From a virus, in the IMG/VR virus record IMGVR_UViG_3300026078_000024, positions 1 to 64,000 of that record: 64,000 nt of DNA; one strand, given 5' to 3'. Within the stretch, counting starts at the first letter, position 1; the number at the start of each line of letters is the position of its first letter. The translations under genes were made by a program, and so were the position numbers. The notes beneath the pieces are model-generated. The model saw only the letters and a list, made by a program, of their open reading frames with translations. It did not search any database and had not been told where the DNA came from. This document shows, in pieces, positions 7,481 through 52,000 of the stretch.

Positions 7481-7789
7481 ATGCCCACCATCCCGCAGTA
7501 CGTGAAGATCATGAGAGACGCTGCCTGGGACGTCGCGGAGCGGTTCGGGGTGGACATCACCCAGGAGCCGAAGGCGTCCCGGGCTGAGCTGCTGTCCATT
7601 CTCGCGGTGCAGAGCGTCTTGATCAAAGCCCTGGTGGACAAGGGTGTGATCACGGACACGGAGCTTCTGGCTGCGGTCAACGCCATGCGTTCGTCTCCGT
7701 GGTCCCCCGGTCCTCTTCCGGTCCGTCCGGTCGACTGGGACACGGTCCCGGTCACAGGCGTCGGGGTCATCCCGGTTACGGGGGCATGA
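7481..7789 (+). CDS. Hypothetical protein
   Basis: 102 aa, GATCATG start, fills the gap between paralogues. Confidence 0.7.
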   Translation: MPTIPQYVKIMRDAAWDVAERFGVDITQEPKASRAELLSILAVQSVLIKALVDKGVITDTELLAAVNAMRSSPWSPGPLPVRPVDWDTVPVTGVGVIPVTGA

Positions 7790-8876: not shown

Positions 8877-9434
8877 ATGGCGTGGAGTTCTCCCATGACG
8901 GCCGTGGCCGGTTCCGTGTGGACGGCGGCTCAGTGGAACACGTTCATCCGGGACAACCTGAACGAGTCCGAGACGTCGAAGGCGTTGACCACGAGCGGCT
9001 ACAGCGTGGTGACGTCTCTGCACCGGCTCTCCGAACGGGTCCCCCAGGTGGTCAACGACGCGGCCGAAGTGGTCACCGCAGAGACGTCCTACTCGGATCC
9101 CGAGACACTCGCAGCCGGGTCGCCGGTGGTACCGGGCCCGAGCATCACCGCGTTCACAGGGCAGAAGGCCCTCGTTGCGATCTACGGCGCTCCGCGCACG
9201 TCCGGCGGCACGGCCGCATGGATCAGTGTGGAGGTCTCCGGCGCGACGGACATACAGGCGGACGACACCCACTCGATCCAGAACCACGTCACCGACCCCG
9301 ACTCCTGGCGCTCCGGCGCCACCTTCGGCCTCGATCTCACCGAGGGGCTGAACACCTTCACCATGAAGTACCGGGTGTCCACGTCCGGCACCGGCCATTT
9401 CACCTCGCGCCGGATGGTGGTGATCCCGTTCTAG
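8877..9434 (+). CDS. Tail fibre/virion protein paralogue 4 of 4
   Basis: MAWSSPMTAVAG...IRDNLNES; GLNTFTMKYRV...VIPF; RBS GAGGAG. Confidence 0.8.
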   Translation: MAWSSPMTAVAGSVWTAAQWNTFIRDNLNESETSKALTTSGYSVVTSLHRLSERVPQVVNDAAEVVTAETSYSDPETLAAGSPVVPGPSITAFTGQKALVAIYGAPRTSGGTAAWISVEVSGATDIQADDTHSIQNHVTDPDSWRSGATFGLDLTEGLNTFTMKYRVSTSGTGHFTSRRMVVIPF

Positions 9435-15801: not shown

Positions 15802-15817
15802 GATCCCTCCTAGGTCG

Positions 15818-18608: not shown

Positions 18609-18745
18609 TACCCCCGGCCGGATTCGAACCGGCGCGGTCACGGCGGAATGCCGAGACGATCCCGGCTGCCGTGCCATGGGAGGGGCCTGGCGTTCCTCTC
18701 CCGTCCCGTTGTTAGGCGGCGCTCTGACCACTGAGCTACGGGGGC
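18609..18745 (-). ncRNA. 137-nt tRNA-shaped RNA: canonical acceptor, D and T arms, with an ~86-nt structured domain replacing the anticodon/variable arms
   Basis: GCCCCCG TA GCTC AGTGGTCA GAGC G [86 nt] GCCGG TTCGAAT CCGGC CGGGGGT A. Confidence 0.75.
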
Positions 18746-22857: not shown

Positions 22858-23004
22858 GATCGGCTCCTGTGTCCGTATCTGCGGGTGGGTGATGATGCCA
22901 GCCACGCGGCCCGACTCGAACAGGGGCCGTACTCAAACGTGGACCAGATCAATGGCAACGCGCGCATCCTCGAACGGGCCGGAACCCGTTCTCCGCTGTA
23001 GCGC

Positions 23005-23077
23005 GTGGCTGGCATCATCAGGACCGGGGCACCACCCCCGGCCGACGGCAGGCCCTCCCGGGCGGCCGTTTCGCCAT
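23005..23077 (-). ncRNA. Type II hammerhead ribozyme, copy A (predicted GUC cleavage between 23044 and 23043)
   Basis: UGGC GAAA CGGC..GCCG UC^ GGCCGGGG GUGGUG CCCCGGUC CUGAUGA U GCCA GCCAC: full core, three stems, loop I GUGGU pairs with the 3' tail GCCAC. Confidence 0.85.
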
Positions 23078-23342: not shown

Positions 23343-23579
23343 TCAGAAGTTCTTGCTCACCAGGCGCCACGAGTTGCGGTGGATCGCCAGGGCCGCCGTG
23401 TTCTCCGCGAACTGCCGGTCGTCCGTCTCGACCTTGATCAGTTCGTCGGTCTTACCGGCGACCAGGTGGAAGATCTCGACGGTGAAGATCTCTGCGGTGA
23501 GGGTGCCGTGCTCGTCGATGTCCTCGCGGCCCTGTTCGGTGAGACCCTCGTAGTACAGGTTCAGGTCGTAGTCGTTCAT
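23343..23579 (-). CDS. Small acidic hypothetical protein between the two hammerheads
   Basis: Start cassette directly follows hammerhead B. Confidence 0.7.
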   Translation of the reverse strand: MNDYDLNLYYEGLTEQGREDIDEHGTLTAEIFTVEIFHLVAGKTDELIKVETDDRQFAENTAALAIHRNSWRLVSKNF

Positions 23580-23606
23580 GATCGGCTCCTGTGTCCGTAT
23601 CGGTTC

Positions 23607-23677
23607 GGCTGGCATCATCAGGACCGGGGCACCACCCCCGGTCGACGGCAGGCCCTCCCGGGCGGCCGTTTCGCCGT
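23607..23677 (-). ncRNA. Type II hammerhead ribozyme, copy B (predicted GUC cleavage between 23644 and 23643)
   Basis: CGGC GAAA CGGC..GCCG UC^ GACCGGGG GUGGUG CCCCGGUC CUGAUGA U GCC; two substitutions relative to copy A. Confidence 0.8.
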
Positions 23678-23679
23678 GA

Positions 23680-23877
23680 TCATTCGTCGTAGTCGCCCGT
23701 CATGGCCCCGACCCACTCGGTGGCGTCCATGCCGTCCAGGGTGGGGAACCCGTCATCGTTCACGAAGTCGAGCGTCGTGAGCTGGATACCGGCGTCGGCC
23801 GCCTTGGTGATCAATGCGTACACCTTGGCCTGGAACTCGGGGGTTTCGTTCTCGATGTGAAACACGGTGTGCGCCAT
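23680..23877 (-). CDS. Small hypothetical protein
   Basis: RBS GAAAGG, GATCATG; stop immediately precedes hammerhead B. Confidence 0.65.
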   Translation of the reverse strand: MAHTVFHIENETPEFQAKVYALITKAADAGIQLTTLDFVNDDGFPTLDGMDATEWVGAMTGDYDE

Positions 23878-24041
23878 GATCGTTCACCTTTCCGTTTTGG
23901 TCTTGGACGGTCCGTACGATGCGGCCAGAACGATCAGTTCGGACGCGATCTCGTCTGTCGGTGCCATGTTGCACGCGGCTTCGCATGTGAAGACCGTGAT
24001 CGTGAACTGGCGGATCTCGTTGATCTCTTCCGGGGTGCGCA

Positions 24042-24230
24042 TCAGACCGCCTTGAATTCGATCATGTCTGCGTTCCGGTGGGTCTCACGGATCTTGCGGA
24101 GTAGCGCATCGGCCGCCCTCTGCTCGGACGACGCTCGGACCGTGGCGACCCTGCGCCGGACATCTCCGGGGGCCCATTCGGGGTCGGGGCGGTAGTCGAG
24201 GGTTACGCGGTAGTTGAACTGGATTCGCAT
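24042..24230 (-). CDS. First ORF of the early operon, hypothetical
   Basis: Preceded by the start cassette. Confidence 0.6.
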   Translation of the reverse strand: MRIQFNYRVTLDYRPDPEWAPGDVRRRVATVRASSEQRAADALLRKIRETHRNADMIEFKAV

Positions 24231-24317
24231 GATCGGCTCCTGTGTCCGTCTCGTGCTCGTGCATGGGGAGATCCACCGGCTTCCCCGTTCGAGATACGGT
24301 CGCGGCCGGTGGATCAG

Positions 24318-24778
24318 TAGCAACGGCGGGGATCGAACCCGCTAGACGCCTCTCGGTCCCCGGTTCCCCCGGGTGTTTATCGTCTCGCTGCCATGTGCGC
24401 CGGGTGTTTAACCGCAGACCCGGCGAAAGCGTTTGGTCCGTCAGTCACGCGATCAACGCGTGCATGTGATGACGGAATGTCGGTCCGATCCGCCGTTTGG
24501 GTTTCCGCCTCCGCCATCTGCCTTGATCTCTCAGCGCCGGTATGGCGGTGGTTTGTGATCAAGACCGTCCGGGTTCGATTCGGTCCGTCCCATTGGATCT
24601 TCCGGGATTTTTGGGGGCCCCCGGTGGGGCCGTCATCCCCGCATTGCAGCTCTTCGATCAGTCTCCCGACGATCAAGGCGGTGGGTTGTCTGCCTTCTTA
24701 GAAGATCACCCGCCGTGGTGGCCGGTGCGACGTCCGGTTTAAGATCACCGGGGCCGATCTTCCGTCGTTCTTTGGTAC
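24318..24778 (-). ncRNA. Putative ~460-nt structured RNA with a pseudoknot and a 3' tRNA-like module (24318-24392)
   Basis: Begins just after a consensus promoter; no RBS-supported ORF; ends GGCAGCG [..] GCGGG TTCGATC CCCGC CGTTGCT A. Confidence 0.65.
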
Positions 24779-24784
24779 ATCTCA

Positions 24785-24813
24785 AACATACGGCCGCTGG
24801 GGGCCCATGTCAA
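24785..24813 (-). promoter_or_regulatory. Strong sigma70/HrdB-type promoter
   Basis: TTGACA-N17-TATGTT, with a relatively AT-rich stretch upstream. Confidence 0.85.
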
Positions 24814-24881
24814 ATGTTGAGAACCCCCTCTGACCTGCGAAGACAAAAGTCAATACAATCAATTTCTGCGTGTCCACGGTC

Positions 24882-24910
24882 AAGAAAACGGGCCCCCGAG
24901 AGGGCCCGTC
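24882..24910 (-). terminator. Intrinsic terminator insulating the early promoter
   Basis: GACGGGCCC-TCTCGG-GGGCCCGTT followed by TTCTT. Confidence 0.75.
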
Positions 24911-24962
24911 GTTACCAATCTGTTATGAACCTTTTTCTGATCAAGCGCTGACCTGCGGTGCT

Positions 24963-25370
24963 TCACCTCCTACGCGCGCGCGTACGTCCGCGTTCCATCA
25001 CCTTGGCCTCGGTTCTCGTGATCCTCAGAGACCGGACGGCCGCCGCGACGGCCACGGAGCACACCGCCGTGGCGATCAAGAGCGTCTCGATCATGGGGAC
25101 GATCATCACGAGAATGACCGCGAAGATCCCGGCGATGATCGTGAACCCGAGGTACAAGATCATGTACGGGGTGTACTTCGCGAGGGGATCCGGCGGAGGC
25201 GCCACCGGCGCCGGACGCGGCGCCTCGTTGATCGTGATGTTGATGATCGGTCGGCCGCTCTCGACGGCGCGGCGGACTTGATCGCCTTTGAGGTACTCGA
25301 CAAGATCCGGGAGCCGCTCGCGGTACAGCTCCACCGCGTGATCGTTTTCCCGTCCGTCTGCCATGGTCAT
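24963..25370 (-). CDS. Membrane protein (2 TM), possibly Spd-like
   Basis: Long hydrophobic segments, RBS GAGGAG; adjacent to traB. Confidence 0.7.
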   Translation of the reverse strand: MTMADGRENDHAVELYRERLPDLVEYLKGDQVRRAVESGRPIINITINEAPRPAPVAPPPDPLAKYTPYMILYLGFTIIAGIFAVILVMIVPMIETLLIATAVCSVAVAAAVRSLRITRTEAKVMERGRTRARRR

Positions 25371-25465
25371 CTCCTCGTTTCCGGCAGTGAGTGAAGATCT
25401 GAGAGAGCCCAGGTGGGAGGAGGTTCACTGGTCGGTTCACTCCGGGGTCTCACTGGCCATTCACA

Positions 25466-25700
25466 GTTATGCAGAATCATGTTGTACGGCGTAAGCGTTG
25501 ATCCGAATGATCAAGCGCTGACCTGCGAAAACTCTTTTGATCTTAGGGGTGGACCACTTATACCTTGGACCCTAAACGATCTCGTTAGCGGGGCGTACAG
25601 AGGTTTTCTCACCCTACGTGTTGGTAACTTCTCTTATTCTTACGCTGGGCAACCGGATAACCGGTCGGATGGCTGCATAACCATCCGACCGGCGTTGATC
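25466..25700. repeat. ~235-bp non-coding direct repeat, copy 1 (partner 38671-38905)
   Basis: Ungapped offset 13205; identical blocks of 21 bp (25574-25594) and 41 bp (25598-25638); terminal 12-bp hairpin. Confidence 0.9.
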
Positions 25701-27639: not shown

Positions 27640-28484
27640 GATGCGCGTCCCTTCTCGAACCTCTTCCGTGCGACGTAAAAGGTGTTGTCCGGCGTGCCGG
27701 GGTGGAGCTTCCGCATGGCCTCGTACAGATCGTCATTCGGCGCGTCCGGGTGGTCCGTCAGGTACTGCCGGACGTCCGACGCGGGGGAGCCCCGGCCTAT
27801 GTCCGGTGTCCGGGCGGACGCTCCAGCCGTCCGGTTCGCGGCGTCCGTCTCGGCGTGTCCGGTCCACGTGGCCATGTCCGGCGTCTCGTGTCCGGTCCAC
27901 GTGACCATGTCCGGCGCGGTGTCCGGCGCGGTGTCCGGCGCGGTGTCCGGCGCGGTGTCCGGCGTCTTGACCGGCCGCTTGTCAGCTTTCGGACGTGCTG
28001 TCCGGCGCACCTTCGGCGCGGCGGCGCCCATGTGCAGGAGATGTCCGAACACGGCGGCCGGGATGCAGCTCACGATGATCGTGAGAATGAACCGGTGTCC
28101 GGTGATCAACTGCTGCTCGTAGAGGTGCGCGACCGGCTGCGCGGCCATGGCCACCAGGATCGACAGAACGGCCCCTGTAACGGCCGTCATCCGGCCCGGC
28201 GCCCCTTTGGGCCGCTTGGTGGCCACGACGGCGGAGATGCCCGCGTAGGCCGTCAGGGCGGCCGGTGTGAGCCACGCCATGCCCCTGGTCCATCCGGCCA
28301 TGACTCCGAGGTAGTGCTCACCCGGGGCACACATGACCAGGATCATCACTGCGACAACGGGACGGCCGACGTCGAGCATGAGGGTGACCCACCAGGGGTC
28401 ATGATCGTCACGTCCGTTCTGACGCTGTTCGATCTTGTCCTTCAGCCACCGGACGAACCGGCGCGTCCTCGTTTCGGTGTCCAT
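27636..28484 (-). CDS. Spd-like (DUF2637-type) membrane protein with PDTA repeats and a C-terminal HTH-like segment
   Basis: 4 TM with 'EHYLGVMAGW...AWLTPAAL..YA', '..CIPAAVFGHLLH'; coupled to traB by an ATGA overlap. Confidence 0.75.
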   Translation of the reverse strand: MDTETRTRRFVRWLKDKIEQRQNGRDDHDPWWVTLMLDVGRPVVAVMILVMCAPGEHYLGVMAGWTRGMAWLTPAALTAYAGISAVVATKRPKGAPGRMTAVTGAVLSILVAMAAQPVAHLYEQQLITGHRFILTIIVSCIPAAVFGHLLHMGAAAPKVRRTARPKADKRPVKTPDTAPDTAPDTAPDTAPDMVTWTGHETPDMATWTGHAETDAANRTAGASARTPDIGRGSPASDVRQYLTDHPDAPNDDLYEAMRKLHPGTPDNTFYVARKRFEKGRAS

Positions 28485-49052: not shown

Positions 49053-52000
49053 CCACGGATGCGGAGATCGCTCAGCAGAACGGTCATGTGGAGGGGGCTC
49101 AGGAGAGGGTCCTCGACGCCCTCGGGCACCCGTTCTCCCCCGAGTCGCTGCGAGTGCTGGCGGAGTCGGCGATCACACCGGAGACGGCGGCACGGTACGG
49201 GATCACCGCCGTGGCGGATCCCGATCACATCCCTGACGAGATCTTCGGATCGTGGCACGCGTTCCTCGGCGAGGCCGAGACCGGCATGATCTTCACCTGG
49301 CGGGACACCGACCGGGAGATCCCTCAGTACCGTCCGGACGTGGCGGTGCAGACGCCGGACGAGAAGATCCACAAATACCTCGTCCCGCGCGACTCCGGCA
49401 CCTTCCTCAACCATCTGCGGAACCCCGTCGGCCCGGACGACCCGGTGTTGTTCGTGGAGGGGTCGAAGCAAGGCGTGGCTGCGGCAGCGTGGGCCCCGGA
49501 GGGGTGGGGGGTTGTGGCGGTACCCGGGTGCAACAACTGGGTCGGCACAGACCTCTCATGGGCCGACGGCCGCAAGGTGATCATTCTCTTCGATGCGGAC
49601 TTCACGTCGAACCGTGACGTGTACGACGCGGCAGCCGGGCTGAAGGAGGCGCTGGAGGTCGAGGGCGCGGCGGAGGTGCGGTTCGCGCATCTCGCCGGGG
49701 CACGCAACAAGGACGGTCTCGACGACGTTCTCGGACGGCGGCCGGAGAACCGGCGGACCCTGTACATCGAACGGATCGCCGACATGGCGGCCGACCGTCT
49801 CGGACGGCGGCCCACCCGTTCCGTGCGCGCATCCGCGTATTTCGACGAGAAGGGCCTGTTGGCCCGGACGTCCGCCCTCACCGTTCTCGGCAATCAACCG
49901 GCGGCCCTCGCGGACGGATCCATGATCGCTCTGTACCGGGACGGCGTGTACCGGATCGATCTCGGGGACGAACCGCTGATCGAACAGGTCAAGGATCTCC
50001 TGGGTGAGGACTACCGGCCCGCGCACCGGAAGACGATCGAGGAATATCTCGTCGGCGAGCTGTCCGGTCGAAACCTCCGGGTCGGGCAGAGGTCCACGGA
50101 ACCGCTCCTGAACACCGCGTCGTGCATGATCGACCTCCGCACCGGCGAGGTACTGGATCATGATCCGAAATACCTGAGCACGTTGCAGATCCCGGTCCCG
50201 TGGGTGCCGGACGCGGCGTGTCCGACGTACGAGGCGTGGCTTGAGGACGTGATCCCCGGCCAGGCCGAGGCACTGGAGGAACTCGCGTCCACGATGCTCG
50301 ACCCGTCCCGGACGCCCTTCAAGGCGGCGTTCCTCTACGGGCCGACGCACTCCGGCAAGTCGACGTTCCTGCGGATCATGGAAGCGGTCGCGGGTGCGGC
50401 GAACCGGTCGGCCGTCGATCTCCACCAGCTCGTCGATGATCATTTCATGTCTGCCGAGCTGTATCAGAAGATCTTGAACATCGGGTCCGACATGTCAGCC
50501 GCCCACATCTCCGACGTCTCCCTGTTCAAGAAACTCACCGGCGAGGACCCGGTGCAGGCGAACCGGAAATACGGCCGGACGTTCACCTTCACGAACCGCG
50601 CCCTGTTCGCCTTCTCCGCAAACGAGATCCCCACCGTCGGCGAGACCTCCCGGGCGTACGTGCAACGCATGATGCCATTCCACTTCTTCAACTCGTTCGC
50701 CGGTAACGAACGGCCGGAAATTGAAGAGCGGATGCTCCGCGAGGAACTCCCGGGGATTCTCCGCCGCTGGGTCTCGGCGTGGCGCCGGTTCTCCGAACGC
50801 GGGATCTACCTACCGGTTCCGGAGGACGTGCAGACGGAGTTCGAGACGTCGAGCGACCGAGTCGCCCGGTGGGTGCAGCTCCGGTGCGACGTGCACCCCG
50901 AGGCAATCGGGCAGATGGTCGGCGCGGACAAGGGAGAGACGATCTCCGCTCTCTACTCCTCATTCAAGATCTGGGCGAGGGAGGACGGACCGGCAAACGT
51001 CATGTCACGGCAGAAGTTCTCGGAGCGTCTCCGGCGCATGGATGGGGTCGGGGAGGTACGTCTCGCGCACCGGAACAAGAACCGGGGTCTGAACATCACC
51101 ACGCGGACCGGAGAGGACCGGGAGATCGTTCATGTCCGTTCTGCCCCAGTGACTGACGGAGATGACCGGAATGCCCCGGTGACTGACGCGGATGACCCGA
51201 AGGCTTCCGGTACTGACGGAGATGACCGGAATGCCCCGGTGACTGACGCGGACGCACCAAATGAACCGGTGTCTACCAAGAACGTACGGAATGACAGCAA
51301 TGTCGGTGTCCGTTCTGCCCCAGTCTCTACCGGAAACGTGACGGTTCGTCCCGGTGTGGGTGTGGGTGGTGTTGGTCGAACCCCGGTAAAGGGCATAGCA
51401 GTGGTTCAGAACAAGATCAACGATCTTTCCTCTGAAACTCCCTCATGGACCGAATTCTCTGATAAGACCCACACCGCCAACACCGCCCAGGTCAGAGATG
51501 GTTCTTATACTCACACCGAAGTCACACCCCCCAGGTCAGGGGCCACACCAAGACCCACACCGGGGCAAACCGGTACATCTCCGATAGACACTGGGGCAAA
51601 ACCGGACACCCCCGCTCCCGCGCCCCCCGACAAGACAGGACCGGCCGTGACTTCGAAAACACCCACACTTCCCACACCCCCCAGGTCAGAGCACTGCCCC
51701 GACCCGTTCGCCGACCACACCCCGCCTCCGTCCGCCGTGCCGGTGGGTCTCGACCTGGAGGCATGGGACGCGGAAGATCTCTTCCGTCACGACACCCCGG
51801 TCCTCGGTCCGTACGTCCGTCTCGTGGGTGCCGGTCCGGTCGGAGACGTGGCCACCGGTCGCGCGGAGGTTCTCGAACGCATCCGGGGAGACAACCCGAT
51901 CGTGGGCGTGAACCTCGCCCTGTTCGATCTCCCCGCCCTTGACGTGCACGAGGGGATCCCGGTGGAGGAGACGATCCCCCGGGCGCATGACATCCGGTTC

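Follow-up and report, generated by a model that had tools for sequence, protein, structure and literature searches.

A non-coding leader RNA bearing a tRNA-like module without an anticodon arm heads an early-type operon of an uncultured actinophage

The strongest promoter in the region analysed drives leftward transcription of a small-gene, early-type operon in the genome of an uncultured soil actinophage. The operon opens with a conserved, structured leader of approximately 540 nt that sequence comparisons indicate to be non-coding. Close to its 3' end, the leader carries a 75-nt module composed of an acceptor stem and a canonical T arm, with no anticodon arm. On balance, this module probably has a processing or 3'-end-forming role for the leader RNA, exerted via host tRNA-processing enzymes. 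The evidence for this view comprises the recurrence of an acceptor/T-arm stack at the same position across lineages, the presence of a ribozyme at that position in one relative, and the published edge of a transcript in mycobacteriophage L5, and it is these three observations together that make a processing role the best explanation.

The window, meaning the whole 64-kb stretch of DNA that was analysed, is the first part of a 92,877-bp IMG/VR virus record that is judged complete. It has a G+C content of 65%, and its phage genes include a tape-measure gene and a primase-polymerase. The closest cultured relatives, as identified via the primase-polymerase, are Streptomyces phages (35-37% amino-acid identity), and the source virus is accordingly an uncultured 93-kb actinophage that is distant kin of those phages. 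Neither the leader DNA, when searched by blastn, nor the upstream TraB/FtsK-like protein found a match among 50,697 cultured-phage records. The tetranucleotide GATC is evenly spread and occurs 982 times in the 64 kb, whereas base composition predicts approximately 205 occurrences and a Markov estimate gives 733; GATC was rejected as a leader-specific signal, since the approximately 5-fold excess spans the whole window without local enrichment. The features of the leader and its surroundings are listed below in order of transcription.

24883-24910, minus strand: GC-rich hairpin and U run, terminator of the preceding TraB-like/membrane-gene unit (CGGGCCC, 6 nt, GGGCCCG, then TTTTCTT)
24785-24813, minus strand: promoter TTGACA-17-TATGTT, with a probable transcription start near 24778
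24243-24778, minus strand: non-coding structured leader of ~540 nt, identified from its MFE, frameshifting indels and lack of an Rfam match
24499-24702, minus strand: conserved core of ~204 nt, defined by identity to relatives L008 and L013
24602-24639, minus strand: H-type pseudoknot module, found in nine leaders with five stem versions
24520-24565, minus strand: long hairpin with a variable insert, stem 1 of the pseudoknot originally predicted, identified by covariation
24437-24476, minus strand: hairpin TCCGTCA...TGACGGA, located where the leader is variable and alignment with L008 and L013 fails
24399-24424, minus strand: hairpin GCCGGGU/ACCCGGC just 5' of the tRNA-like module, with conserved loop CUGCGGUYAAAC
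24318-24392, minus strand: tRNA-like module of 75 nt without an anticodon arm, identified by its fold and covariation
24270-24315, minus strand: stable hairpin GAUCCACCGGC/GCCGGUGGAUC (z = -3.3), 3' of the tRNA-like module and 5' of the ribosome-binding site
24228-24249, minus strand: start-associated sequence ACGGACACAGGAGCCGAUC and ATG of the first small gene, from repeat family D3 and the ORF list
23603-23676 and 23003-23076, minus strand: type II hammerheads, both Rfam-significant (52.6 and 48.7 bits)

The promoter sequence TTGACA-17-TATGTT is the only match of at least 10/12 to the sigma-70 consensus in the 64-kb window, and its hexamers, together with the first transcribed bases, are kept in the related loci L002, L013, L042 and L012. 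The original prediction, which placed a structured RNA behind the strongest promoter of the window and proposed that it was the first RNA made from the operon, is borne out on both points, since a conserved, structured, non-coding region lies directly 3' of this promoter; the individual features that it had listed are likewise present on the minus strand where it had located them. The terminator hairpin of the preceding unit was read directly from the letters and is absent from the list returned by the consensus scan, and a comparable hairpin and T run is located 5' of the promoter in L008, L013, L042, L045 and L046. The leader itself has no terminator-like site on the minus strand according to the consensus scan. 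As transcribed, therefore, the 5' leader should be continuous with the mRNA, and would exist as a separate RNA only if processed.

The motif CAGGTCAGMG is present in five copies in the window, versus 0.36 expected. Three of these, at 24828-24837, 24946-24955 and 25516-25525 on the minus strand, are grouped just upstream of the leader promoter, and the remaining two are at 51488 and 51682 on the plus strand. Copies of the similar sequence CCAGGTCAGAG flank the promoters of L005, L008 and L012, and the motif is a candidate operator of some regulator. Further upstream, five tandem 12-nt units TGTCCGGCGCGG lie at 27896-27975, inside or beside the gene that precedes the TraB-like gene, and more copies of TGTCCGG reach as far as 28766 (families D1, D9 and D17). 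At the other end of the leader, the first small gene (24230-24042, minus strand) starts with an ATG at 24230 and is preceded by one of four copies of the ACGGACACAGGAGCCGAUC motif, each of which stands before a small gene. Start-associated sequences have been described in Cluster K mycobacteriophages (Pope et al. 2011, PMC3203893), and there too a conserved motif is located directly 5' of many small-gene starts, often after an inverted repeat, although the motif sequence is different and the likeness touches only the context of the leader and not the leader itself.

When folded as a whole, the 550 nt following the promoter gave an MFE z-score of -3.8 versus shuffled sequences. Open frames of 99 aa (minus strand, 24377-24676) and 102 aa (plus strand) cross the leader, the former having a TTG start and no ribosome-binding site. 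Comparison with L006, in which the TraB-like gene is 97% identical at the nucleotide level and its protein 98% identical at the amino acid level, revealed five 1-nt indels in the leader, and the conserved core has two 1-nt indels with respect to L008 and three with respect to L013. Since these indels shift the reading frame, the leader is considered to be non-coding, and the predicted non-coding status withstands the challenge that conservation of the 99-aa ORF would have posed. A mini-ORF (AUG GCA GCG AGA CGA UAA) that partly coincides with the acceptor strand, and is also present in L008 and L013, was rejected as a gene, having no ribosome-binding site, and is treated as a by-product of the conserved acceptor and D-like bases.

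The relatives comprise 13 related loci from viral and metagenome collections, anchored on the upstream TraB-like protein, of which 52 homologues were found. All loci that reach far enough contain, in order, a terminator, a promoter, a non-coding leader of 400-600 nt, and small genes. The leaders are mosaics, in which types A, B and C share different blocks: those of type A (the window, L006, L008, L013 and part of L012) have the 204-nt core in common, and those of type B (L002 and L042) and type C (L005, L011, L045 and L046) are built from other blocks. Hammerheads excepted, the leaders of the relatives match no Rfam family. Nucleotide identity of the core is 93% with L008 and 89% with L013, versus 71% for the adjacent TraB-like gene, and the core is still recognisable in L012, where the TraB-like protein is only 35% identical. 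The middle of the leader, meanwhile, is not alignable even in relatives with a TraB-like protein that is 64-67% identical. In pattern scans, one promoter pattern matched a known relative only, a core word matched L013 only, and one core pattern gave zero matches; an 18-mer searched for in genome contigs was discarded after returning 28 unrelated matches, which is about the number expected by chance. Two smaller shared elements were observed among the relatives. The block GGUUCGCUCGUACCYCUAAACGAYGC is present in three otherwise unlike leaders (L002, ~8900-8925; L045, ~7603-7628; L046, ~7545-7570), the copy in L046 falling within the extended stem III of a hammerhead, and a hairpin with the loop CCGAGGACAUACGGCACUGAC is common to L005, L046 and L049.

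The tRNA-like module has a 7-bp acceptor stem (GGCAGCG/CGUUGCU), a T arm of sequence GCGGG-UUCGAUC-CCCGC, and a discriminator A, with a central arm (AGACG/CGUCU) that encloses a hairpin with an NGGAA-type loop and replaces the D and anticodon arms. Folded alone, the module adopts this combination of acceptor, central arm and T arm as both its MFE and its centroid structure, and the attributes sought in a tRNA-like element, namely a 7-bp acceptor stacked on a 5-bp T stem, a UUCRANY loop and the G53-C61 pair, are all present. A full cloverleaf is not: the Rfam tRNA model (RF00005) had zero matches in 23500-25500 even at E values up to 10, and ARAGORN reported tRNAs in the window at 15817 and 16231 only, with neither a tRNA nor a tmRNA in the leader.

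Covariation of the module was assessed in an alignment of seven sequences, representing six distinct forms, that was fitted to the model (the window, L006, L008, L013, L049, L042 and L002). In this alignment the acceptor stem is 94% paired, with both sides changed in 5 of 7 pairs, and the T stem is 100% paired, with both sides changed in 3 of 5, as compared with 40-52% pairing in a control with slid partner columns. The closing G-C pairs are invariant in 7/7 sequences, as are the G53-C61 and 49-65 pairs. The equivalents in L008 (GGCAGCG/CGCUGCC; GGGAG/CUCCC) and L013 (GGCGGCG/CGCCGCU; GGGGG/CCCCC) illustrate these changes. The acceptor of L049 is imperfect, with two mismatches, and L042 and L002 have stripped-down forms of 47-49 nt that consist of the acceptor and T arm, in which a linker of only 15-16 nt joins the acceptor strand to the T arm, the form of L002 having a bulge or mismatch at the acceptor/T junction. 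The sequences are few and their alignment was fitted to the model, so that the support from covariation is good but not overwhelming; nevertheless, the tRNA-mimic 3' end that had been predicted folds as claimed, and its acceptor and T arm covary across the seven sequences.

The six distinct sequences (window/L006, L008, L013, L049, L042 and L002) share a position just 5' of the hairpin, start-associated sequence and ATG of gene 1. The stack of acceptor and T arm is the minimal unit for RNase P, RNase Z and the CCA-adding enzyme. The presence of the stripped forms of L042 and L002 at the shared position suggests that the conserved part of the module is the minimal RNase P/Z recognition unit. 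Features of the module that would favour such recognition are a 12-bp coaxial stack, the T loop, U-1 and A73; a U precedes G+1 in 5/7 of the module sequences, the A73 discriminator is present in the window, and an encoded CCA is absent. The loop of the central arm keeps a GG (GGGAA, CGGAA or CGGUA) that could mimic the contact between D-loop and T-loop.

The module is flanked by hairpins that are themselves maintained. That on the 5' side (24399-24424) matches L049 with an nhmmer E value of 2e-11, and its predicted GCCGGGT/ACCCGGC stem reads GCAGGGT/ACCCTGC there, a compensatory change from C-G to A-U that supports it. The hairpin on the 3' side (24270-24315) has compensatory changes from C-G to G-C in L013 and to A-U in L042. 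A long-range pairing proposed by RNAalifold between GAUCGGCCCC (24759-24750) and the ribosome-binding site GGAGCCGAUC (24240-24231) was set aside, since L045 keeps the 5' block and yet differs in the start region of the first gene.

The position just before gene 1 can be occupied in other ways. In L046, a Hammerhead_II with a long stem insert lies at the equivalent place, just before the start motif of the first gene, and scores 42 bits, which is above the Rfam cut-off. L005 and L045 have plain hairpins only, indicating that a cleavage module at this position is not obligatory. Tandem type II hammerheads are known to cut prophage polycistronic RNAs (Perreault et al. 2011, PMC3088659; Rfam RF02276). 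As in those prophages, self-cleaving modules punctuate the operon studied here, being located downstream in the window and at the leader/mRNA junction in L046, whereas the leader junction of the window has no ribozyme core and would need host enzymes. Indeed, Rfam found no type II hammerhead (RF02276) inside 24243-24778. The duplicated TAAACACCCGG to which the original prediction had drawn attention is present in the leader and is not conserved as a repeat; both copies carry UAAAC instead of the hammerhead GAAAC.

Comparison with Rfam by cmscan, using permissive filters and E values up to 10, returned only EBER1 and snoRNA matches for the leader, all at chance level. The leader is thus neither a tmRNA nor a Y RNA, neither family being among the Rfam matches and a tmRNA being absent from the ARAGORN output also. 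The tRNA-like domain of tmRNA does resemble the module in combining an acceptor and T arm with a diminished D region, in lacking an anticodon arm, and in belonging to an RNA that also contains pseudoknots, but in the window just 50 nt separate the acceptor strands, which do not lie at the two ends of the molecule, and there is no tag reading frame. Other RNAs in which tRNA-like structures act as processing signals include MALAT1/mascRNA, bacterial polycistronic mRNAs that are cut by RNase P, and stable RNAs C and D from the tRNA cluster of phage T4. There, as here, a tRNA-shaped module is located within a longer transcript, and enzymes cut it to define the end of another RNA; the module in the window differs in that it has no anticodon arm and lies between a phage leader and mRNA, and its cleavage is presumed.

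The closest known system is the Pleft leader RNA of mycobacteriophages L5 and D29. Previous work showed that the Cluster A phages L5, D29 and StarStuff make an extremely abundant and stable non-coding RNA of ~500 nt from Pleft (Dedrick et al. 2017, PMC5712189). At all times it exceeds every other phage transcript in abundance, and it stops before gene 89 without a terminator, the authors describing the formation of its 3' end as unclear; transcripts downstream of it are more than 90% lower (PMC5712189). Phage lacking 51,407-51,619 were viable, but attempts to delete 51,195-51,619 or 51,195-51,407 did not succeed, and the L5 leader locus proved toxic to M. smegmatis (PMC5712189). Northern analysis of L5 revealed smaller species that share the 5' end, and the left edge of the transcript peak lies near 51,133 (PMC5712189). 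The text of the paper names tRNA twice, in other contexts, and a tRNA-like element never (PMC5712189).

Model R1 matched L5 on the transcribed strand at the Pleft leader. The matching element (GGGUAG...UCGGG-UUCGAUU-CCCGA-CUACCC-A) extends from 51,226 to ~51,134 of the L5 record, and its 3' end falls at the edge that was published for the transcript peak. The D29 element has the T stem CCAGG/CCUGG, and across nine Cluster A phages there are five fully paired versions of the T stem around an invariant T loop, with a discriminator A in 8/9 elements and a G in that of Adzzy. The element recurs in 142 records, with no annotated feature under the match among the 30 matches listed, and against Rfam the L5 element scores only 22 bits, to tRNA-Sec.

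The leaders of L5 and D29 thus resemble that of the window in separating the early lytic promoter from the first gene by ~500 nt that are non-coding and contain no terminator, in having operator-type repeats around the promoter, and in ending with a tRNA-like element (acceptor, canonical T arm and discriminator A) that is followed by a hairpin and the first gene. A mini acceptor/T-arm element is also present in the next spacer of L5, as in relatives of the window. This unannotated element lies between genes 89 and 88 (L059, phage L5, 121-174, minus strand; ~50,420-50,473 of the record) and consists of GCCCCG, a 16-nt linker, GAGGG-UUCGACU-CCCUC, and CGGGGC. Conversely, the main L5 element is larger and has more arms than that of the window, being 83-105 nt in the eight phages that share the L5 acceptor and 77 nt in Adzzy, and the leaders have no detectable sequence homology; a search of L5 for the pseudoknot core of the window with model R2 found nothing significant. 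Abundance, stability, toxicity and essentiality have been demonstrated in L5 only.

The layout common to the window and L5/D29 implies that host tRNA-cutting enzymes probably shape the leader RNA. According to the processing model, host RNase P would cut 5' of the module, between 24393 and 24392; alternatively, or in addition, RNase Z or 3' trimming would act at the 3' side of the module, after 24318. Such a cut would sever the leader from the mRNA to give a discrete, nuclease-resistant leader RNA, for which a function in trans is conceivable, and the remaining mRNA would begin with a protective hairpin. Type II hammerheads would perform equivalent cutting between the downstream genes, and at the leader position in one relative. 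The hammerheads at that position in L046 and downstream in the operon, the lack of a terminator-like site in the leader, and the absence of an integrase are all consistent with processing. Several observations count against it. The high conservation of the core is left unexplained by the model, and the sharing of 5' ends by the smaller L5 species on northern blots does not on its own demonstrate that the cut is made at the tRNA-like element. Similarly, the acceptor mismatches in L049, the bulge or mismatch in L002, the lack of an encoded CCA, and the plain hairpins in L005 and L045 sit uneasily with a cleavage signal.

A broader proposal is advanced tentatively, and with somewhat less than even confidence, namely that unrelated actinophage lineages (the Streptomyces-phage-like group and the Cluster A mycobacteriophages) share an undescribed design, in which the earliest and most abundant of the early transcripts is a long leader RNA that has its 3' boundary set by an anticodon-less tRNA mimic that is processed by host RNase P/Z and is interchangeable with hammerheads. 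If correct, this design would explain the 3' end of the essential and toxic Pleft RNA of L5 and D29, and would establish tRNA-ended phage leader RNAs as a new class. The layout shared with an unrelated phage group, the covarying mimics and the hammerhead swap would together provide a concrete mechanism, in which host tRNA-processing enzymes free the leader, and which can be examined in cultured L5 or D29 in M. smegmatis.

The core of the leader contains structure that bears on a second reading. The H-type pseudoknot module at 24639-24602 comprises a GGG/CCC clamp, an AUGAC bulge, the stem GGCCC/GGGCC, and a CCGG loop that pairs with a downstream CCGG. It can form in nine leaders of types A and C, in each of which model R2 matches once, and across the relatives it maintains an (A/G)(U)GAC bulge, a 4-5-bp stem and an A-rich linker of 7-9 nt; the loop-tail helix changes from CCGG/CCGG to GAG/CUC in L013, which represents a single compensatory event. 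This module resembles the guanidine-III or preQ1-I aptamers, and membership of either family is not claimed because Rfam returned no match. It nonetheless adds a well-supported small pseudoknot in an uncatalogued RNA family, and is better supported than the knot at 24565-24511 that had been predicted. Of the latter, stem 1 (GTCTTGATC/GATCAAGGC, 24565-24557 with 24528-24520) is 93% paired and has two compensatory pairs, both from one relative (UU/AA to CC/GG in L012), so this part seems to be a real hairpin. Stem 2 (CCGCCAT/ATGGCGG, 24548-24542 with 24517-24511), on the other hand, has no compensatory change in five sequences, loses its A-U pairs in L008 and L013, is broken in L012, and competes with a local CGCC/GGCG hairpin that RNAalifold favours, leaving the knot itself unproven.

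These observations raise the possibility of a cis-regulatory leader, in which the core and its H-type pseudoknot would bind a protein or small ligand, or alter RNA polymerase in the manner of the HK022 put or EAR antitermination RNAs, in order to control expression of a long hairpin-rich operon, the tRNA-like module merely stabilising the RNA. Constraint on the core in excess of that on the adjacent gene is typical of binding sites, and the promoter-proximal position of the core, the resemblance of its pseudoknot to small riboswitch or autoregulatory pseudoknots, the many stable hairpins and ribozymes downstream, and the operator-like motif grouped at the promoter can all be accommodated. As the main role of the leader, however, this appears unlikely, if still the most credible of the alternatives: no riboswitch or antitermination family in Rfam matches, there is no expression platform beside the pseudoknot, which lies ~370 nt before the ribosome-binding site, and the type B leaders (L002 and L042) dispense with the core yet keep the tRNA-like end. 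Cis-regulation and processing are not exclusive of each other.

It is more doubtful that the module serves as a tRNA decoy, whereby an abundant acceptor/T-arm minihelix would titrate some host factor whose targets are the ends or elbows of tRNAs. Examples of such a factor are modification enzymes, enzymes for CCA addition or repair, and defence toxins by which acceptor ends are modified or cut; cleavage would then be incidental. The canonical T loop with its invariant G53-C61 and 49-65 pairs, expression from the strongest promoter, additional T-arm-bearing modules within the operon, and the toxicity of the L5 leader locus would suit a decoy. Lacking an anticodon arm, however, the module could not act on anticodon nucleases; its acceptor sequences vary freely among relatives, which argues against mimicry of one particular tRNA; and the substitution by a hammerhead in L046 fits cutting better than mimicry.

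The original prediction had proposed a large ornate RNA, either of a class such as GOLLD or ROOL or of a new one. On the GOLLD/ROOL reading, all 460-540 nt would assemble into a single elaborate particle, possibly a multimeric one. The size, strong predicted structure and phage origin of the leader agree with this, as does the occurrence of tRNA genes and tRNA-like elements in the same direction of transcription. The idea is nevertheless very improbable given that the cmscan search up to E = 10 yielded no match of the leader to GOLLD, ROOL or any other family, that the L046 leader has no GOLLD, ROOL or Y RNA match in Rfam, and that the leader is assembled from modules exchanged independently of one another, with a middle part that cannot be aligned with relatives at 64-67% TraB-like protein identity, as opposed to one co-varying architecture. 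Sequence from the 3' part of a tRNA gene is often duplicated in phage attachment sites, and the canonical T arm might accordingly be read as a DNA-level relic, either an attP core or a decayed tRNA gene. This is effectively excluded, since profile searches of the complete 92.9-kb record found neither a tyrosine nor a serine integrase, and the 5' acceptor strand, which neither attP nor decay would keep, is present and covaries with the 3' strand. Least credible of all is that the 99-aa or 102-aa frame is a real gene, which, for all that the frames are open, the non-triplet indels, the TTG start without a ribosome-binding site and the compensatory changes that preserve RNA stems effectively exclude.

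Downstream of the leader, hammerheads, hairpins, tRNAs and more T-arm-bearing modules separate the genes, both in the window and in its relatives. The two hammerheads of the window are located exactly 600 nt apart, between small genes, and each is directly 5' of the start-associated motif; L046 and L049 have four to five hammerheads each, L006 two and L008 one. This suggests that ribozymes, tRNA mimics and hairpins between cistrons are a general organisation of actinophage early operons. At 22890-23076 on the minus strand of the window, and at 6378-6535 of L008, the segment that follows the hammerhead includes 18 nt (window) or 14 nt (L008) complementary to the 3' part of the ribozyme, beside which are T-arm-like hairpins (CCUG-UUCGAGU-CGGG and GUCCG-UUCAAGC-CGGAC). 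The arrangement would give a second kind of acceptor-like helix and T arm heading the next mRNA. In L045, ARAGORN identified a tRNA-Ser(tga) at 9357-9428, which is intergenic within the same operon and under the Rfam tRNA threshold. Finally, a 137-nt match to the Rfam tRNA model (41 bits) at 18609-18745 on the minus strand of the window has intact acceptor, D and T arms, with ~86 nt of folded sequence in place of the anticodon arm.
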